Source: a virus
Lineage: Duplodnaviria; Heunggongvirae; Uroviricota; Caudoviricetes
Length of the DNA stretch: 16,514 nt
Reading direction: 5' to 3' (one strand)
IMG/VR virus record: IMGVR_UViG_2681813234_000010
Location: 1 to 16,514 of that record
Below are positions 2,579-10,466 of the stretch, in pieces. A model generated the notes under the pieces. The model was given only the letters and a program-made list of their open reading frames with translations. It was not told where the DNA came from and did not search any database. Each line of letters opens with the position of its first letter. Position 1 is the first letter of the stretch. A program made the translations under genes and the position numbers.

Positions 2579-3079
2579 ATGAAAAAGGAAAAAAGAAATG
2601 ACCTAAAGGGTCAGGAATTACCACATGTAAAAGAAGCACTACGAGTATGGAATAACTTTCACTCAAGAGTGCGTAATAACATCAATTATAGTACTGTTAC
2701 CATCTGCGATGACTGGTATCGGTTTAGTAATTTTTATTATTGGTATGTTGAAAATGTTGTTGATGGTTGGCATTTAGATAAAGACATATTAGGAGGTAAT
2801 GAGTACAGCCCAAGTAACTGCATCTTTGTACCGAGAGAAGTAAATCAATTGTTCCGTAAAGCACCAACGTCATTATCAACCGGTGTTGTCGTTAATCATA
2901 AGGGCTATCAAGCACAAGCAACATTTGATAAGAAAGTACATAAGTTTGGGACATACCCAACGATAGAAGAAGCTCATGCTGCTTATGTTATTGGGCGTAA
3001 ATCATATATCTATAAACTATCGCAGAAGTATAAAGCATATCCAAAACTTAGTGCGGTACTATTACAAAAATCAAAATAA
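2579..3079 (+). CDS. HNH-type endonuclease-like protein with a C-terminal AP2-like DNA-binding domain
   Basis: ATG at 2579 with AAGGA 6 nt upstream. Residues WHLDKDILGGNEYSPSNCIFVPREVN match an HNH_3-style H...N...N motif. The downstream GYQAQATFDKKVHKFGTYPTIEEAHAAY resembles an AP2 domain, a pairing common in phage homing-endonuclease-like proteins. Confidence 0.55.
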   Translation: MKKEKRNDLKGQELPHVKEALRVWNNFHSRVRNNINYSTVTICDDWYRFSNFYYWYVENVVDGWHLDKDILGGNEYSPSNCIFVPREVNQLFRKAPTSLSTGVVVNHKGYQAQATFDKKVHKFGTYPTIEEAHAAYVIGRKSYIYKLSQKYKAYPKLSAVLLQKSK

Positions 3080-3144
3080 CGAAATGGCCTGAGTACTGGA
3101 AATACTACAGGTCAATATTAACATCTATCATATGGGTATTTATT

Positions 3145-3669
3145 ATGACAAAAAAGAAAGAGCCGCATGAAATAAAGAAACGTGGACGAAAACCAAAAGA
3201 ACACGATAATGCAGAATTACAAGATCATTTAAGGGGAGTACGCCATCTTAATCAACTTACAGATGAAGTACGTAGAGTAATATCAAACTCTGTTAAAAGT
3301 TACTTTGAAAAGAACAATAAACGTAAGACTTTCTCAAACAAGAATATGCTACTTCTGGTTACATCGACTCGATACATCACAGATGAAGCGATAAAGAACA
3401 ATATCGAGTACTTTGATGCCTTCACACTCAATGAGTACGGCGATTCCTCAGTACGAGATTATAAGATGGTCACGATTGCTATATGTGAGGGTCTGAATGC
3501 AATTCTAAGTAGTGGTAAGCCAGTAAGAAGTGATACACCAGAGGGATCACAGTACTTAACTGGTGAAGAAGCATATCAACTACGTATGGCTTTAGATGGT
3601 GGCTGTACTAAGGCAGACCTACTAAAGGTTATAGCTACAATTTATCCCGAATTAAGACATTCTAAGTAG
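3145..3669 (+). CDS. Hypothetical protein with a basic AT-hook-like N-terminus; possible DNA-binding regulator
   Basis: ORF of 174 aa. The N-terminus has KKRGRKPKE (AT-hook-like). The C-terminal LTGEEAYQLRMALDGGCTKADLLKVIATIY loosely resembles a helix-turn-helix of the sigma region-4 type. Function not established. Confidence 0.5.
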   Translation: MTKKKEPHEIKKRGRKPKEHDNAELQDHLRGVRHLNQLTDEVRRVISNSVKSYFEKNNKRKTFSNKNMLLLVTSTRYITDEAIKNNIEYFDAFTLNEYGDSSVRDYKMVTIAICEGLNAILSSGKPVRSDTPEGSQYLTGEEAYQLRMALDGGCTKADLLKVIATIYPELRHSK

Positions 3670-4403: not shown

Positions 4404-5138
4404 TCAACTCAATAAAATTTCCATACTTGTGGGTGAAAACATACGATAGCTGATAATGTCACCTACATTGAAATTTGTTTGGAAAAAACTTCTAAGATCT
4501 GTTCCTCCCATGATTCTAGGTACTTTATTAGTGTTTGCCGTTCTGTTAATGATTGCAGTGAGGCTTGTATTGGTGCTGGAGTTAGTTATTTTTATTCTTG
4601 CACCATCTTCTCCAAACTCATGACTGGCAGCCACGGTAACGTTGAAAAATCCTCTTTGCCAATATGTATTAGCCATTCTGAAATTGTAAGTCGGGCTTGA
4701 TTTCTCTGAAGTGACAATTTCTATGTAATCTGTCGTGATTATCTTTTCCTGATAACCATTCCACTCAGGCTGTAGTACTCTAATTATGTCATCTTCTAAT
4801 GCAGCAGCTAGGTTTAAGTGAAATTGACCATAGTGCATTAATCCATTATCGGGTAAAACAAAAATGTCTACCGCTTCATTGTTTTTTAGATGCCTAATAA
4901 TATTCGCGTTGTTTTTTATATTTGTTGATTGAGTAGGGCCTGGCATAGAATAATGATACATTCTACGTTTAAGTAAACGAGTAGTTTTGCCTACATATTT
5001 TACCTGACCATCACAAATGAACGCATAAAGATTATTTTTGACATCTGAGTGAGAAGGTTCAAGTGTAAATTGTAGTTTTTCGCCATTGAGTTCCCAAAAG
5101 CCAATTTTAATAAATCCAATTTCAAGTAATCTATTCAT
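4404..5138 (-). CDS. GIY-YIG nuclease-domain protein with an unrecognised ~110-aa C-terminal domain
   Basis: ORF of 244 aa. Residues LYAFICDGQVKYVGKTTRLLKRRMYHY match the GIY...YIG core with the conserved Arg. Downstream, AAALEDDIIRVLQPEWN matches the conserved Glu and Asn region (compare UvrC ALLLEHNYIKLYQPRYN). The start ATG overlaps the stop of the upstream gene (ATGAATAG on the minus strand). Confidence 0.65.
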   Translation of the reverse strand: MNRLLEIGFIKIGFWELNGEKLQFTLEPSHSDVKNNLYAFICDGQVKYVGKTTRLLKRRMYHYSMPGPTQSTNIKNNANIIRHLKNNEAVDIFVLPDNGLMHYGQFHLNLAAALEDDIIRVLQPEWNGYQEKIITTDYIEIVTSEKSSPTYNFRMANTYWQRGFFNVTVAASHEFGEDGARIKITNSSTNTSLTAIINRTANTNKVPRIMGGTDLRSFFQTNFNVGDIISYRMFSPTSMEILLS

Positions 5139-5877
5139 GTATGACCTTCTTTCGAACTATGAATTTGTCAGTGGGGTAATTATTTGAATAGGTAGAAATA
5201 ATAAACGCTGAAACTTTCCGGTGTGTCTCTGTAACCTGATTCTTAAACTCTAAAAATTCAGCAATAGTTAAATCTTTTGCCTGTCGGTCTGCGTGTATCA
5301 GTGAGTCAACTTCAAAATATGAAGAAAGAAATAAGTTGTATATATTCCCATATTCCCGATTAGTGTCCTTAAGGATATTAATGATAGAGCAACTATAGTT
5401 ACTTAATTCAAAACCATTTCTTGGTATTGTATTTAAACTGTTAATTACTGAATAGGAGAGGTTAGCGAACTCATCCATTAAATTATCTAACTTGTGAACC
5501 TCATTTCTTAGTGATTCGTTGATGGCACAATTGTTATTTAATACGCTGATCGATTGTTTGCCCACTGACCAATATAAATTTCTCAAATGGTGGCTGGCAG
5601 AATTAACTTTTGTTAAATTAGTATAAATCGATTCTTCGATAACATTATGAACCACATCATATTGCTTTTGTGCTAACCATTCAGGTGCTTTTTTATACGC
5701 AGCAATCGCTATACCTAAAGTACCAATTGTAGCTAATGAACTCAACCAATCACTTACGCTTCCCCATTCAAAGCCATTAGAATCAGAAAATAGTACTTTA
5801 ATTAAAGCTAATATCGCTACCCATAGAAGTACTATGACGGTAGCAACTAATAATTTGTTCCATCCTTCAACTTTCAC
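5131..5877 (-). CDS. Membrane protein with two N-terminal transmembrane helices and a ~180-aa soluble domain
   Basis: ORF of 248 aa with a probable GTG start at 5877. Hydrophobic segments LLVATVIVLLWVAILALIKVLF and WLSSLATIGTLGIAIAAY. Its stop overlaps the start of the GIY-YIG gene by 8 nt, implying an operon. Confidence 0.55.
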   Translation of the reverse strand: MKVEGWNKLLVATVIVLLWVAILALIKVLFSDSNGFEWGSVSDWLSSLATIGTLGIAIAAYKKAPEWLAQKQYDVVHNVIEESIYTNLTKVNSASHHLRNLYWSVGKQSISVLNNNCAINESLRNEVHKLDNLMDEFANLSYSVINSLNTIPRNGFELSNYSCSIINILKDTNREYGNIYNLFLSSYFEVDSLIHADRQAKDLTIAEFLEFKNQVTETHRKVSAFIISTYSNNYPTDKFIVRKKVIHE

Positions 5878-6049
5878 TTTCTTAACCCGTAGAATGGTTC
5901 ATGGATGAAAAATTTTACCATTTGCAGTTATGTTTCGTAAATGATCATCGTAGAGTGAAAATTTAACTTAAGTGGAAGTTGCAACTCCATTTGGTGGAGT
6001 TGTACTGGTTGAGATCACGATTTCTTTGAAAAAAACGGGGCTGGTTGCT

Positions 6050-6076
6050 TTGAACTGGTTAACATAGTGGGATAAT
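6050..6076 (+). promoter_or_regulatory. Putative promoter for the HNH / PD-(D/E)xK cassette
   Basis: TTGAAC at 6050-6055, then TG (6068-6069) followed by GATAAT at 6071-6076 (extended -10-like). AGGAG at 6100-6104 precedes the ATG at 6110. Confidence 0.3.
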
Positions 6077-6109
6077 AAGCACCGAAGAAGAACTTCAGCA
6101 GGAGCAGGT

Positions 6110-6838
6110 ATGAACAGAAAGCAATTCATCCAGTCACACGGAGCTACTTGCAGTAACTGGACGTGGAGTTGGTCATTTGTTAACCATGAAAAGAAGATGG
6201 TCATCTTTGGGTCATGGGATGTTGAGAGTGAACAAGAGCGGTCTGTAATACTCCGGGAGAAATGGGAATACAACTCAAACAACAAAAAACAACCGGGATA
6301 CACCCAGGCACTGGAACACATCCGTTTAGCCCATGAAGGCTACGAACTTTACACCTTCAATATGGTTTTCGCAGAACACCCTGAGAATCCTGAAATTGCA
6401 GTAATCAAGGATTTTGAGCGTAAATTAAACAAGCGATATCTTCGTAAAGAAGGTGTTGTTTGGTATGCAGACTTCTTACCTAATCCATTCCCTGATGAAA
6501 TTCCTTCAGGAGAGAGTTTTGTTGAAGGTGCAAAGACTCAAGTAACAGTGAACTACTACGAACGCGATCCAAAGGCCCGACAAGCCTGCATCCAGCATCA
6601 CGGTACTACCTGTAAATGCTGTGGCTTCGATTTTGAGAAGGTCTATGGTACACATGGCCGTGGGTTCATTCATGTACATCACATCAAGCCGCTTCATACG
6701 ATTGGGGAAAACTATGTGGTCAATCCCGTAACAGATATGATCCCATTATGTCCAAACTGCCATGCAATGGTACATCACGGAAGCGAAGTACTTACAATTG
6801 CAGATTTGAAAAAGAAAATGACATTCTGGAGCGAGTAA
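6110..6838 (+). CDS. Zn-finger HNH endonuclease (McrA-like HNH) with an unrecognised ~150-aa N-terminal domain
   Basis: ORF of 242 aa with a good ribosome-binding site. The C-terminus CKCCGFDFEKVYGTHGRGFIHVHHIKPL...DMIPLCPNCHAMVHH is a classic HNH motif with CxxC...CxxCH zinc ligands, as in McrA-type enzymes. The N-terminal domain has no motif I can assign. Confidence 0.7.
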   Translation: MNRKQFIQSHGATCSNWTWSWSFVNHEKKMVIFGSWDVESEQERSVILREKWEYNSNNKKQPGYTQALEHIRLAHEGYELYTFNMVFAEHPENPEIAVIKDFERKLNKRYLRKEGVVWYADFLPNPFPDEIPSGESFVEGAKTQVTVNYYERDPKARQACIQHHGTTCKCCGFDFEKVYGTHGRGFIHVHHIKPLHTIGENYVVNPVTDMIPLCPNCHAMVHHGSEVLTIADLKKKMTFWSE

Positions 6839-7630
6839 ATGGATTTATCACAATTGAGCAACGTCGAATTGATGCAACTGAATCAGTTGACGCTTGATGA
6901 GTTAGAACGACGAGAGGTTATCAGAACCAGAAACAATCCTATCAGTGAGTACACTGAATGGCTGGTTGCGGATAAGATGCAGATGGTACTGGCTGCACCT
7001 AGTACTAAAGGGTATGACGCTACAACAACTGATGATCGAAAAATTCAGATTAAGTCTCGTAAGAATAATTTAAAAAACCAATCATTAATTCTTGGAATTA
7101 TCAGAAATTATGATCTGAACCAATTCGATGAACTCATTGCCGTAATATATAACCATGATTTCTCAATTCGTTATGCCATATCCATACCACATGAATTAGT
7201 GAAGGAATATGGTTTTTATAATGAGCATCAGAATGGGTACACTTTAAGAATAAGCAATTTATTACTTAATGATCCACGTGTAACAGATATCATTGAATTT
7301 ATTGACCCAGACACTGAACGTTCAAAGGAAGATATCACGGTGAAGCCAGATTCAAACACTATCCGGGATGTACAGACAATAGGAATGCAGACGTTTGTTG
7401 AGTACTATCAGTATGTTGAAAGTGGTATGAACACAACTGATCTTGTTGAAAAGATGGTAACTGACCATCCAGAATGGAAGGAAAGTACTGCAAGAACAAA
7501 GGCATCTTCAATGCGAAGAGTATTTAAGAATTGCGACAACGTTGAAGCACTAAAAATCATCTATAAGTCGGATCACCCAGCAATAACGGATGAGATTAAG
7601 AGTAAACTTATGACGCTTTGGGATAAATGA
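6839..7630 (+). CDS. Hypothetical protein with a PD-(D/E)xK-like (Hjc/restriction-endonuclease-fold) motif
   Basis: ATG at 6839 directly abuts the TAA of the HNH gene (TAAATG). EWLVADKMQMVLAAPSTKGYDATTTDDRKIQIKSRK fits an E ... D ... (E/Q)xK nuclease-core pattern. The fold assignment is tentative. Confidence 0.5.
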   Translation: MDLSQLSNVELMQLNQLTLDELERREVIRTRNNPISEYTEWLVADKMQMVLAAPSTKGYDATTTDDRKIQIKSRKNNLKNQSLILGIIRNYDLNQFDELIAVIYNHDFSIRYAISIPHELVKEYGFYNEHQNGYTLRISNLLLNDPRVTDIIEFIDPDTERSKEDITVKPDSNTIRDVQTIGMQTFVEYYQYVESGMNTTDLVEKMVTDHPEWKESTARTKASSMRRVFKNCDNVEALKIIYKSDHPAITDEIKSKLMTLWDK

Positions 7631-7729: not shown

Positions 7730-8041
7730 TCAAAACGGTAATTCTCCCTGCTCACAAAACCATCCATCTTCATCATGCTGCTTATAGACAGAATTCTCAG
7801 TACTCAGATAATGCAAACCTTCCAGTACTGAACTTAGCGGCGTTTCCAGTATGAACACGAAGCAATCACGCTCAATCGTGCCTAACCAGTATGTACCTTG
7901 CTGGTTCTGGAAGAAAACGCGATCCCCATATGAAAACTCATCAAGACTGTATCCCCAATAGCAGACCTTAGCCCATTGGCCTAAATGCTCAAACTGCTGC
8001 ACCCCGCGTTTGATTGCCAGATCAAAACCGTTCTTGCCCAT
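7730..8041 (-). CDS. Hypothetical protein (103 aa) in a GC-richer island
   Basis: ORF with ATG at 8041. Its composition matches the surrounding GC-rich segment rather than the AT-rich backbone. No family motif recognised. Confidence 0.4.
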   Translation of the reverse strand: MGKNGFDLAIKRGVQQFEHLGQWAKVCYWGYSLDEFSYGDRVFFQNQQGTYWLGTIERDCFVFILETPLSSVLEGLHYLSTENSVYKQHDEDGWFCEQGELPF

Positions 8042-8146
8042 ACTATGCCTCTACATTAATACTGGTTATTCATACAGTATTGCATCACATTTCGCACAGA
8101 TCCAGCCATGAAAATACTTACCACTAAAAACGGTAGAAATGTAATT

Positions 8147-8216
8147 ATCGATCATTTTAATTTGATCAATGGTTAAAAATGATCAATTATCAATCAGTTA
8201 TGACAACTGAGAGATC
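8147..8216. promoter_or_regulatory. GATC-rich divergent intergenic region with a repeated TGATCAAT motif
   Basis: Four GATC sites in about 67 bp (8150, 8164, 8181, 8213). TGATCAAT occurs twice (8163-8170 and 8180-8187). The region lies between the divergently oriented 7730-8041 ORF and the EAL-like ORF. Confidence 0.4.
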
Positions 8217-8219
8217 AAC

Positions 8220-8729
8220 ATGAAACTCGAACATTGGGCAATTCCGATCACTTCATTGGACGGTATGTTACTCGGCGTAGAGCTGTAAACCCGTGTACTG
8301 ATAAACGGTTGCCAGGTACTGATGGGGGCAGGAAAAGAAAGTGAATATATCCGTCACGTGGTCTATCAGAACCAGTTAAGAATGATTCAGGGTAAAGCCG
8401 CATGGTTCAAAGAAAAGGGGCTGTTGTGCGTGCTCAGTACTGGCACAGGTACACGCTATGAAGATCTACCATTCATACGGTACATGGCTGCTGAACCACT
8501 GCTAACGAACGGTTACGACTTAGTTCGACTAAATAGACGGTTCACTGAAGAACACATAGAGCGGCTGATCTTCCCGGTACTCATCAATAACATCATGCAG
8601 TACTGCGACAAGGTGATCGTACAAGTCAGCAGCAATCGAAATCACAGGATTTTACGAGAGTCGGGGGTATGGGCAGTACAGGGAGAGTACAGGCCAATCC
8701 GCTTTGAACAATGCGAACAACTTCTATAG
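8220..8729 (+). pseudogene. EAL-like (possibly YdiV-type degenerate EAL) ORF interrupted by a single in-frame TAA
   Basis: ATG at 8220 opens MKLEHWAIPITSLDGMLLGVEL, then TAA at 8286-8288, and the same frame continues open to 8729 (170 codons in total). The N-terminal xPIxxxxGxxxGVEL and C-terminal WAVQGEY patterns resemble EAL-domain ends. The family assignment is tentative. Confidence 0.35.
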
Positions 8730-8739
8730 GGATATAACA

Positions 8740-9012
8740 ATGAAAATACTAATCGTCATGTTGGTAGTACTGCTCACAGGCTGCGGCAGCGTACATCACT
8801 CATTCATGGATAAAGCCTTTGTCGGCAACGTTGATAACAAGGCTACAATAGTACTGTTCGACGCTGGCACACGAAACGGGGTGAAGTACTACCGGCCTCA
8901 GTTCCAGAGTGATTGTGGCCGCACCTACAATCCGATTTACCAGGTGGACAATGGCAGTACTACATGCCATATACGAGAGGAAAGAATTAAAAAAATGCAT
9001 CAATATAGATAA
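8740..9012 (+). CDS. Small lipoprotein (90 aa)
   Basis: ATG at 8740 with AGGGA 8 nt upstream. The N-terminus MKILIVMLVVLLTGCGS has a hydrophobic signal peptide and the lipobox L-T-G-C. It starts 11 nt after the EAL-like ORF stop. Confidence 0.55.
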   Translation: MKILIVMLVVLLTGCGSVHHSFMDKAFVGNVDNKATIVLFDAGTRNGVKYYRPQFQSDCGRTYNPIYQVDNGSTTCHIREERIKKMHQYR

Positions 9013-9092
9013 TAAACAAAAATCAAAGAGATAGAATTATTAAATTATTAAGTGTATGTGGCATGATGAAAAATTAAATAATATATAATACC

Positions 9093-9122
9093 CTCATGCT
9101 GTTATTGATAAAACAGCATGAG
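9093..9122. terminator. Bidirectional hairpin terminator between convergent genes
   Basis: Perfect 11-bp stem CTCATGCTGTT (9093-9103) / AACAGCATGAG (9112-9122) with an 8-nt loop and A/T-rich flanks on both sides. It sits between the lipoprotein gene (+) and the DUF3800 gene (-). Confidence 0.55.
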
Positions 9123-9132
9123 AATATATATT

Positions 9133-10287
9133 TCAACGTAGCATGGCTAATGTTCTGGAAATTCTTATTATATCCTTCTCAATATCATCTAAAACAGGAG
9201 TTGAGTTTCTGCTTCGCTCTGCAATTTCTTGCAAAATATATCTATTTAAATGGTTGTTAACATTTTTAGGGTCAAGGTTTTCTGGTGTGGGAACAACACA
9301 GCACTGCCAATAAAAAATCTCATCTTCAAAATGATTTAGCCATTTAGAATGATATTTTTCTTTCGATTTTTTCTTGTTAAGGACATAAATGCTAGCCGCA
9401 GCTACCACATCCGCAATTTGTATACCATGCGTGACTTTAGAATCAGAAAGAATCATTGGCTCAGATAGCTTAAATGTGATCGGGATTTTTTTATCATGAA
9501 AAGTCTCGAACACAATCTCATCATTGCCTATCATCTCATTGAATGAGTCCTGATGAGTAATTAATGGTTTTGAGCTGTCGCATATAGCTCTCAATGTACC
9601 AAACTTACTACTCATATCGCACAGGAGATTATAAAGAGAAGTCGTTGTCAAATCTAATAACCACTTATCAATCCCAGTACCCTCAAGGCCTTCATATTCT
9701 TCTTCAATTATAGAGATGTTATTCTTGGCGAAATCATGAATGTCCATCATAATTTCAGAATTTTTAGAACCAACAACTGGTTCGATAAAACTATTAACCA
9801 ATATTTTACCTCGTGAAAAATCTTCAAATCGCGAATGTAATAGTTCTGAATATTCATCCTTAGCTATTAAAGAAAAATACATTATATTTGAGATGAATAG
9901 GTGAAATTTAAGGTTGTAAAAAATTGAGCTTTTAGCTGCTAATACTGGCTCAAAAATATATTCGAAGAATTTTCCTGAGAGGGCATATTTTTTTTCGTTT
10001 ACAACCACACGCATACGACCACGGAAATGATTAAGTATTTCATCTACGGCTGGTTGAAATCTCTTGCTATTTACGAGAGTGCTACCTTTTAGCTCTTCGG
10101 CTGCGATCGAGTACTTGTTTATTATATAATCAACAAACTGTTTACTTTCCTCATCATCAGTCACGACTGCTGCGTAACTAAAAAAAGGCTGATCTTTTGA
10201 AAGTAAGTTATTACCAGTGAATCCTGATTCATCGAAATATACATTCTTTACCAATTTGGTCATTCCTTTATGAGCTACAATGTGCAT
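9133..10287 (-). CDS. DUF3800-family protein
   Basis: The N-terminal VYFDESGFTG and C-terminal GIQIADVVAAA match the two conserved DUF3800 signature motifs. The start is uncertain: ATG at 10287, ATG at 10263 or TTG at 10254. None has an ideal ribosome-binding site. Confidence 0.6.
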   Translation of the reverse strand: MHIVAHKGMTKLVKNVYFDESGFTGNNLLSKDQPFFSYAAVVTDDEESKQFVDYIINKYSIAAEELKGSTLVNSKRFQPAVDEILNHFRGRMRVVVNEKKYALSGKFFEYIFEPVLAAKSSIFYNLKFHLFISNIMYFSLIAKDEYSELLHSRFEDFSRGKILVNSFIEPVVGSKNSEIMMDIHDFAKNNISIIEEEYEGLEGTGIDKWLLDLTTTSLYNLLCDMSSKFGTLRAICDSSKPLITHQDSFNEMIGNDEIVFETFHDKKIPITFKLSEPMILSDSKVTHGIQIADVVAAASIYVLNKKKSKEKYHSKWLNHFEDEIFYWQCCVVPTPENLDPKNVNNHLNRYILQEIAERSRNSTPVLDDIEKDIIRISRTLAMLR

Positions 10288-10466
10288 GTGCTATTAATAT
10301 AACATTGTAATAATGCTAATGTAAAATAGAATGTAAGTATTTTTAAGCAAGCTAATTAAGTTAAATTACTAATTAAGGTACTCCGGCAGCCCAGCTTAGA
10401 ACGCGAGTTTTCGGCACCGGATTCTTTAAGTTATGTGTGAAGTTTAGATAGCTTCCCGCACCGCAC

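Follow-up and report, generated by a model that had tools for sequence, protein, structure and literature searches.

Llp, Cor and Rtp45 are small phage-encoded outer-membrane lipoproteins that block receptors from the periplasm, and both Llp and Cor contain an intramolecular disulfide (PMC9586334, PMC12685063). Llp of phage T5 jams FhuA and Rtp45 of phage Rtp binds LptDE, and the llp and rtp45 genes each adjoin a receptor-binding gene. Cor, which blocks FhuA-dependent phages and ferrichrome uptake, is known from temperate as well as virulent phages (T1, the virulent example, together with phi80, N15 and HK022). It is a small protein that has a type II signal and, in its mature part, a Cys pair; its gene adjoins the tail genes, following gpJ-like and N15 gp22/23-like genes in T1. 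Bor of phage lambda and Iss are outer-membrane lipoproteins encoded by morons that form autonomous units, and in lambda bor lies in an accessory region just upstream of the packaging genes. Rz1-type o-spanins, also small outer-membrane lipoproteins of phages, typically possess a short, Pro-rich mature domain.

Here we describe a lipoprotein gene carried on the window (the whole 16,514-nt stretch of DNA analysed) and compare its product with these systems. The protein shares with Cor its small size, type II signal and mature Cys pair, and its family likewise spans temperate and virulent phages (prophages and the coliphage EJP2, respectively). However, the two mature domains are unrelated, the Cys spacing differs, the window family has no known link to FhuA, and the window gene lies between a recombinase gene and terS rather than in the setting described for T1 cor. 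The window lipoprotein has no sequence or fold match to Llp or Rtp45 and, unlike llp and rtp45, its gene does not stand beside a receptor-binding gene; by analogy of function, these two proteins most likely provide the working model for it. Similar to Bor and Iss, it is a predicted outer-membrane lipoprotein encoded by a moron, an autonomous unit in an accessory region just upstream of the packaging genes, but its family shows no Lambda_Bor Pfam match and extends to a virulent phage. The resemblance to Rz1-type o-spanins, small outer-membrane phage lipoproteins as well, is confined at the sequence level to the signal peptide: the window gene is neither embedded in nor located beside an i-spanin gene, is not part of a lysis cassette, and encodes a Pro-poor beta domain predicted to be folded.

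The lipoprotein open reading frame (Table 1) translates as MKILIVMLVVLLTGCGSVHH...HQYR* and comprises 90 codons plus a stop, beginning with ATG. A longer form starting from TTG at position 8704 appears in the open-reading-frame list but is unlikely, because the homologues begin at the MK... position, which assigns the start to the ATG at 8740. The precursor opens with MKILIVMLVVLLTG followed by CGSV, and its signal peptide combines a basic n-region (K2), a hydrophobic core (ILIVMLVVLL) and the lipobox L12-T13-G14-C15, in agreement with the pattern [LVI][ASTVI][GAS]C and a residue other than Asp at position +2. In E. coli, a residue other than Asp after the lipobox Cys leads to Lol sorting to the outer membrane, and by this rule the Gly at +2 predicts that the lipoprotein is sorted to the outer membrane via Lol. 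The small lipoprotein with a canonical lipobox proposed in the initial annotation is thus confirmed (90 aa, LTG/C15), and its gene is under purifying selection, as detailed below.

Table 1. Features of the lipoprotein gene and its surroundings (positions in the window)
Feature	Position	Strand	Description	Basis
Divergent 103-aa gene	7730-8041	-	PHROG 2100, function unknown; part of the GC-rich island	
Divergent regulatory region	8042-8219	.	LexA-box-like palindrome, GATC sites and conserved AAAAATGATCAATTAT promoter-like motif	
EAL-like gene	8220-8729	+	Same transcription unit; related to STM1697/YdiV; in-frame TAA at 8286-8288	
Shine-Dalgarno-like AGGGA	8728-8732	+	7 nt before the ATG; overlaps the stop of the upstream gene	Direct sequence reading
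Lipoprotein CDS	8740-9012 (stop included)	+	90-aa precursor; mature protein 76 aa, ~8.8 kDa, pI 9.2	
Type II signal peptide	8740-8784	+	Ends in lipobox L-T-G-C (8773-8784)	
Cys15	8782-8784	+	Predicted lipidated N-terminus; +2 residue is Gly	
Conserved core	8884-8967	+	K49-Y-Y-R-P53-Q-F, C59 (8914-8916) and C76 (8965-8967)	Family alignments
AT-rich 3' end	8961-9012	+	GC 0.27; stands where most relatives have a ~30-aa C-terminal tail	
Bidirectional terminator-like hairpin	9088-9127	.	-18.6 kcal/mol, z -6.6	

A word-indexed search matched 35 clusters from Escherichia, Klebsiella, Kosakonia and metagenomes, every one of them named 'hypothetical'. An exhaustive HMMER search of 1.84 billion representatives (clusters at 50% identity) with a mature-only profile identified ~27 small proteins of 59-124 aa, the lipoproteins of the family being 70-124 aa long; the large proteins P0073, P0078, P0079, P0081 and P0082 returned by the profile search consist of Thr/Ser/Asp-rich repeats and were discarded as spurious. 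Nearly all full-length relatives retain the lipobox, with G, S, T or N at +2. In the alignments C59 and C76 (precursor numbering) are invariant throughout the family, suggesting that they form a disulfide, while M23, A26, Y51, P53, Q54, F55, I78 and R82 as well as the YYRPQF motif are near-invariant. The pairwise dN/dS of the core ranges from 0.05 to 0.28, and the gene is under strong purifying selection. Together with the conservation of the lipobox, this selection identifies it as a real gene rather than a chance open reading frame.

Most relatives are ~120 aa long and end in a variable C-terminal tail (...EH...LEGVNS..IPDNL). The window copy ends early, the last 52 nt being an AT-rich replacement of this ~30-aa tail, and its sequence reads as that of a mosaic protein with a truncated C-terminus. 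The loss of the tail, the private nonsense codon in the upstream EAL-like gene (see below) and the state of a related prophage in E. coli C483, which is riddled with IS elements, could all be explained if the window copy were a decaying remnant of a module that no longer works here. We regard such decay as improbable: the identical 90-aa protein is present on 60 contigs from E. coli and K. oxytoca, the two 90-aa alleles have diverged with a dN/dS of 0.08 (dS 0.33), other short-tailed variants exist (including the 81-aa protein of EJP2), and all of the conserved core residues are kept. The exact recurrence of the protein and the low dN/dS between the alleles establish that the 90-aa short form is not junk.

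When compared with known families, the lipoprotein finds no relative beyond its signal peptide. The whole protein matches phrog_1754 (unknown function) at E = 8.6e-6 and Cor (PHROG 1119) at E = 0.0024, both over residues 1-56, but without their signal peptides the window protein and a 120-aa relative both lack a PHROG match at E ≤ 0.01, and the Cor match is absent for mature-only sequences at E ≤ 0.1. Alignment of the family profile with T1 Cor by hhalign gives a probability of 0.13%. Membership of the Cor family was rejected on these grounds, the PHROG match to Cor being due to the signal peptide. Other weak matches in Pfam, NCBIfam, PADLOC and PHROGs were dismissed as well: that to phrog_1754 is lost with the signal, that to a T6SS-immunity lipoprotein covers the signal segment only, and those to CsgF and PD-T4-4_B fall far below any cut-off. 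In Pfam the window protein has no match at E ≤ 0.01, and its relatives have none of relevance at E ≤ 1; neither Pfam nor NCBIfam connects the lipoprotein with Lambda_Bor or any other family. A search of the family profile against all PDB chains gives 0 matches at E ≤ 10.

Structure prediction leads to the same picture. A first model including the signal peptide (pLDDT 72) has no significant Foldseek match in PDB or BFVD. The AlphaFold2 model of the mature protein, built from a more diverse alignment (pLDDT 81, pTM 0.66), comprises a short helix and three long antiparallel strands; the first Cys lies in a loop, and the second is followed by the last strand. Its best Foldseek match in PDB has an E value of 0.34, and the matches are generic small beta-barrels (designed SH3 and Hfq/Sm proteins; E 0.3-0.9, TM ~0.45), which are not taken as homology; none of the matches is described as Llp or Rtp45. 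The Cor- or Llp-type relationship that the initial annotation had considered is therefore not borne out by the mature-only PHROG, hhalign, PDB-profile or Foldseek searches, and by sequence comparison the lipoprotein lies outside the Cor, Llp, Rtp45, Bor and spanin families.

Every chromosomal context of the lipoprotein gene that we examined belongs to one uncultured Enterobacteriaceae prophage lineage, in which the gene resides in a variable region (~6-10 kb) between the serine recombinase gene and terS. The lineage is organized as a large serine recombinase, the variable region, lambda-like TerS, TerL and portal, a protease-capsid fusion, a fibre and a DUF2163-type tail. The host element is ~35-40 kb long with ~36% GC and a DUF2163 (GTA-like) tail module, and no replication or repressor genes are recognisable in it. 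TerL of the lineage shares no more than 35% identity with its counterpart in any cultured phage, and the packaging and head genes of the window match just 6 of 5,426 complete E. coli genomes. The two copies examined, in E. coli C483 (L001) and E. coli STEC384 (L055), are disrupted by IS elements or split genes.

Among 41 IMG/VR relatives collected by TerS anchoring, the lipoprotein gene is found in ~15, always in the variable region, and is therefore accessory rather than core; 12 relatives have the EAL-like gene only, and at least four have neither gene. One locus (L008) contains a divergent 89-aa lipoprotein paralogue (5735-6004) directly upstream of the lipoprotein gene (6001-6342), the stop of the former overlapping the start of the latter, and in L005-L007 a second copy at 10047-10338 survives as a frameshifted remnant. 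GTDB species representatives provide three further loci (Scandinavium, Enterobacter and Buttiauxella), two of them followed by TerS and TerL and the third located on a short contig with an EAL-like gene just upstream. No plasmid copy was detected by tblastn against plasmids, and megablast of the region against cultured phages gave no match. A homologue is encoded by one of 50,697 cultured phage genomes, that of the virulent jumbo coliphage EJP2 (Asteriusvirus; L054, OQ411014), where EJP02_472 (2971-3216) specifies an 81-aa protein with 40% identity and an intact lipobox. The gene that follows, EJP02_473, encodes a small and strongly hydrophobic protein with several predicted membrane-spanning stretches. 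Kinship with a housekeeping lipoprotein, the contrary case raised at the outset, was looked for and not found, the contexts examined being those of the prophage lineage or of one virulent phage; as far as these searches reach, the family lacks annotation and known relatives outside phages.

This distribution bears on two roles known for other phage lipoproteins. A conversion lipoprotein in the style of Bor, Iss or TraT would promote survival of the host, through serum or complement resistance or envelope robustness, without acting on phages. The window gene resembles such genes as an outer-membrane lipoprotein moron of foreign GC content with its own terminator, placed in the accessory region upstream of the packaging genes as is bor in lambda, and its hosts include human gut and clinical Enterobacteriaceae. 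We nonetheless consider this role rather unlikely, given the lack of a Pfam or NCBIfam match to Lambda_Bor or another family and a copy in a virulent jumbo phage that is hard to square with a benefit to lysogens. A contribution to lysis, for instance as an o-spanin-like lipoprotein or a lysis-timing factor, is very improbable. It would accord with the hydrophobic product of the gene next to the EJP2 homologue and with a weak match to a Rz-like spanin (PHROG 6073, E = 0.019), but that match covers residues 1-21, i.e. the signal peptide only, and the mature domain is larger than that of Rz1-type o-spanins. Moreover, an i-spanin-like partner is lacking (the upstream protein is EAL-like and on reading has no hydrophobic transmembrane stretch), the lysozyme gene of the lineage is carried on the opposite strand at the distant end of the prophage, and the lipoprotein gene is absent from most relatives. 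The spanin reading was rejected on this context.

The lipoprotein gene is part of a short stretch of distinct composition. GC content is 0.455 at 7730-8041, 0.469 at 8220-8729 and 0.489 at 8740-8960, as against 0.34-0.37 in the flanking genes and 0.373 in the whole window, so that the earlier placement of the gene inside a GC-rich moron holds (an island of 45-49% GC in a prophage of ~36% GC). A gene of the divergent 103-aa type is also present upstream in L037, and L004 has a minus-strand gene of similar size at that position. The hairpin downstream of the lipoprotein gene ends its transcription unit and is shared with the convergent DUF3800 gene.

Between the divergent genes, a LexA-box-like palindrome, ACTGGTTATTCATACAGT, is located at 8061-8078, 20 nt upstream of the start of the 103-aa gene. 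It is the sole such site in the window, with 0.31 expected by chance, and every divergent relative examined retains its CTG-N10-CAG arms. The palindrome may be the sign of a gene under SOS control, e.g. an antirepressor, in an element without an obvious CI-type repressor. Directly before the EAL-like/lipoprotein unit, a stretch of 70 bp (8150-8216) contains four GATC sites (8150, 8164, 8181 and 8213). The motif that surrounds them, AAAAATGATCAAT(T)AT, is shared by loci whose EAL-like proteins are only ~26-47% identical, and the cluster may constitute a Dam-sensitive promoter or a phase-variation element. No consensus promoter in the divergent region passed a stringent scan.

Elsewhere between the recombinase gene and terS, the window carries a defence-type island (6110-7630 on the plus strand; 4404-5877 and 9133-10287 on the minus strand). 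It includes an HNH/type IV-like nuclease (6110-6838) in a back-to-back fusion with a methyl-directed type II-like restriction enzyme (6839-7630; PADLOC mREase_II, 1e-62), a minus-strand pair formed by an endonuclease-like gene (PHROG 1111) and a predicted membrane-protein gene, and the DUF3800 protein.

The gene immediately upstream of the lipoprotein gene may point to flagellar control. A profile of 17 EAL-like relatives matches STM1697 of Salmonella (5hxg) over nearly its full length at E = 3.1e-33 and YdiV (3tlq/4es4) at 7e-8, with weaker support for an EAL-like identity from the NCBIfam and Pfam EAL models, and the EAL motif is degenerate, E-L-E/V replacing E-A-L. Judged from these matches, the gene encodes a shortened EAL-like protein that is homologous to STM1697 and YdiV and predicted to be of the anti-FlhD4C2 type. 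STM1697 and YdiV (STM1344) inhibit the flagellar master regulator FlhD4C2 and thereby repress flagellar synthesis (PMC5622320, PMC10100727). Related EAL-like genes (169-232 aa) are often carried at the same hotspot of the lineage. The presence of such cargo suggests that these prophages control the flagella of their hosts, and our literature searches found no report of prophage-encoded EAL-like/YdiV proteins. In the window, a private GAA-to-TAA change at 8286 introduces a nonsense codon by which the EAL-like gene, as read from its sequence, is inactivated; L013, an otherwise identical IMG/VR contig, and all other relatives have GAA.

The initial annotation had offered superinfection exclusion or host conversion as candidate functions of the lipoprotein, and both are plausible by analogy with characterized phage lipoproteins. 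Host conversion is the main rival to exclusion: as the partner of the EAL-like gene, the lipoprotein would help to switch the lysogen to a non-motile state, the cytoplasmic STM1697/YdiV-like protein shutting off FlhD4C2-dependent flagellar genes and the lipoprotein acting in the envelope, where it might affect flagellar assembly, envelope-stress signalling or biofilm formation. Apart from the similarity of the EAL-like protein to the two FlhD4C2 inhibitors, such a partnership would account for the adjacency of the two genes in at least eight lipoprotein-positive loci, for their close junction (a stop-start overlap, ATGA, in Kosakonia and a gap of 10 nt in the window), and for the common GC-rich island and the single terminator after both genes. 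The frequency of this linkage suggests a role other than exclusion. Yet in twelve loci a full-length EAL-like gene (224-232 aa) has no lipoprotein gene after it, the lipoprotein gene follows unrelated genes or none in L028, L045, L008, L009 and L005, the first four of these having no adjacent EAL-like gene, and it is likewise surrounded by unrelated genes in EJP2. In the window itself the EAL-like gene is knocked out and the lipoprotein intact. An obligatory two-gene system was rejected because each gene is found without the other, and we judge the looser partnership unlikely, though less so than a Bor-style role.

We tentatively favour, at somewhat less than even chances, the view that the lipoprotein is a periplasmic, outer-membrane-anchored superinfection-exclusion factor. 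It would be an accessory, moron-type product of the uncultured temperate Enterobacteriaceae phage lineage, and its ~8.8-kDa domain, a small beta-barrel by prediction, would face the periplasm, probably held by the C59-C76 disulfide to which the family-wide conservation of the Cys pair points. From there it would bind a conserved envelope component (a receptor in the outer membrane or an element of the pathway for DNA entry) and stop adsorption or genome entry by the same or competing phages. Exclusion would also spare progeny phages from being wasted on cell debris. The mode of action would resemble that of Llp, Cor or Rtp45 without kinship to them.

Several properties of the protein and its gene fit this proposal. 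The lipoprotein signal, the non-Asp residue at +2, the invariant Cys pair, the conserved core and the phage-only distribution speak for an exclusion factor, as do the size, the predicted periplasmic location at the outer membrane and the probable disulfide, in which it resembles known exclusion lipoproteins, and the virulent-phage copy, accessory distribution, paralogue duplications and combination of a conserved core with a variable tail fit the Llp/Cor/Rtp45 pattern by analogy. Strong purifying selection makes a conserved partner likelier than decay, and the 40%-identical copy in the strictly virulent EJP2 speaks for a benefit to the phage itself rather than one specific to lysogens. Other observations argue against exclusion: the gene is located ~8 kb upstream of the first fibre gene and not beside a receptor-binding gene, the protein resembles none of Cor, Llp and Rtp45 in sequence or fold, and its core shows no sign of arms-race diversification.

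Fibre types provide a further lead. In the lineage the lipoprotein gene precedes terS by ~2 kb, the first fibre gene follows ~7 kb beyond terS, and the open reading frames ~7 kb downstream of terS fall into two fibre classes (L013-L053), a short fibre of ~560 aa ending in ...DGGSTWYGSLLMADL and a long fibre of 815-1068 aa mostly ending in ...IDELKALVQSLLDNK. The lipoprotein is encoded in 10 of 13 long-fibre loci and in 1 of 11 short-fibre loci (raw Fisher p = 0.0013), but after near-identical contigs are collapsed the association has a p value of 0.27. With significance lost on dereplication, the association is only a lead and may reflect shared ancestry.

Periplasmic jammers of outer-membrane proteins, such as Llp on FhuA and Rtp45 on LptDE, expose allosteric weak points of essential envelope machines, and such small phage lipoproteins also influence the host range of phages and the success or failure of phage therapy. 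Being unannotated, strongly constrained and common to temperate elements and a virulent jumbo phage, the lipoprotein family offers an inexpensive way to look for a further target of this kind. That it represents a new receptor- or entry-blocking class directed at an envelope target new to phage jamming (maybe the receptor of the long fibre), or the periplasmic half of a flagellum-shutdown module with the STM1697-like protein, is a long shot; if true, the two-part flagellum-shutdown module would also exclude flagellotropic phages. The more unusual biology lies next door, in predicted prophage-borne STM1697-like flagellar regulators that belong to a module bearing candidate SOS and Dam marks.
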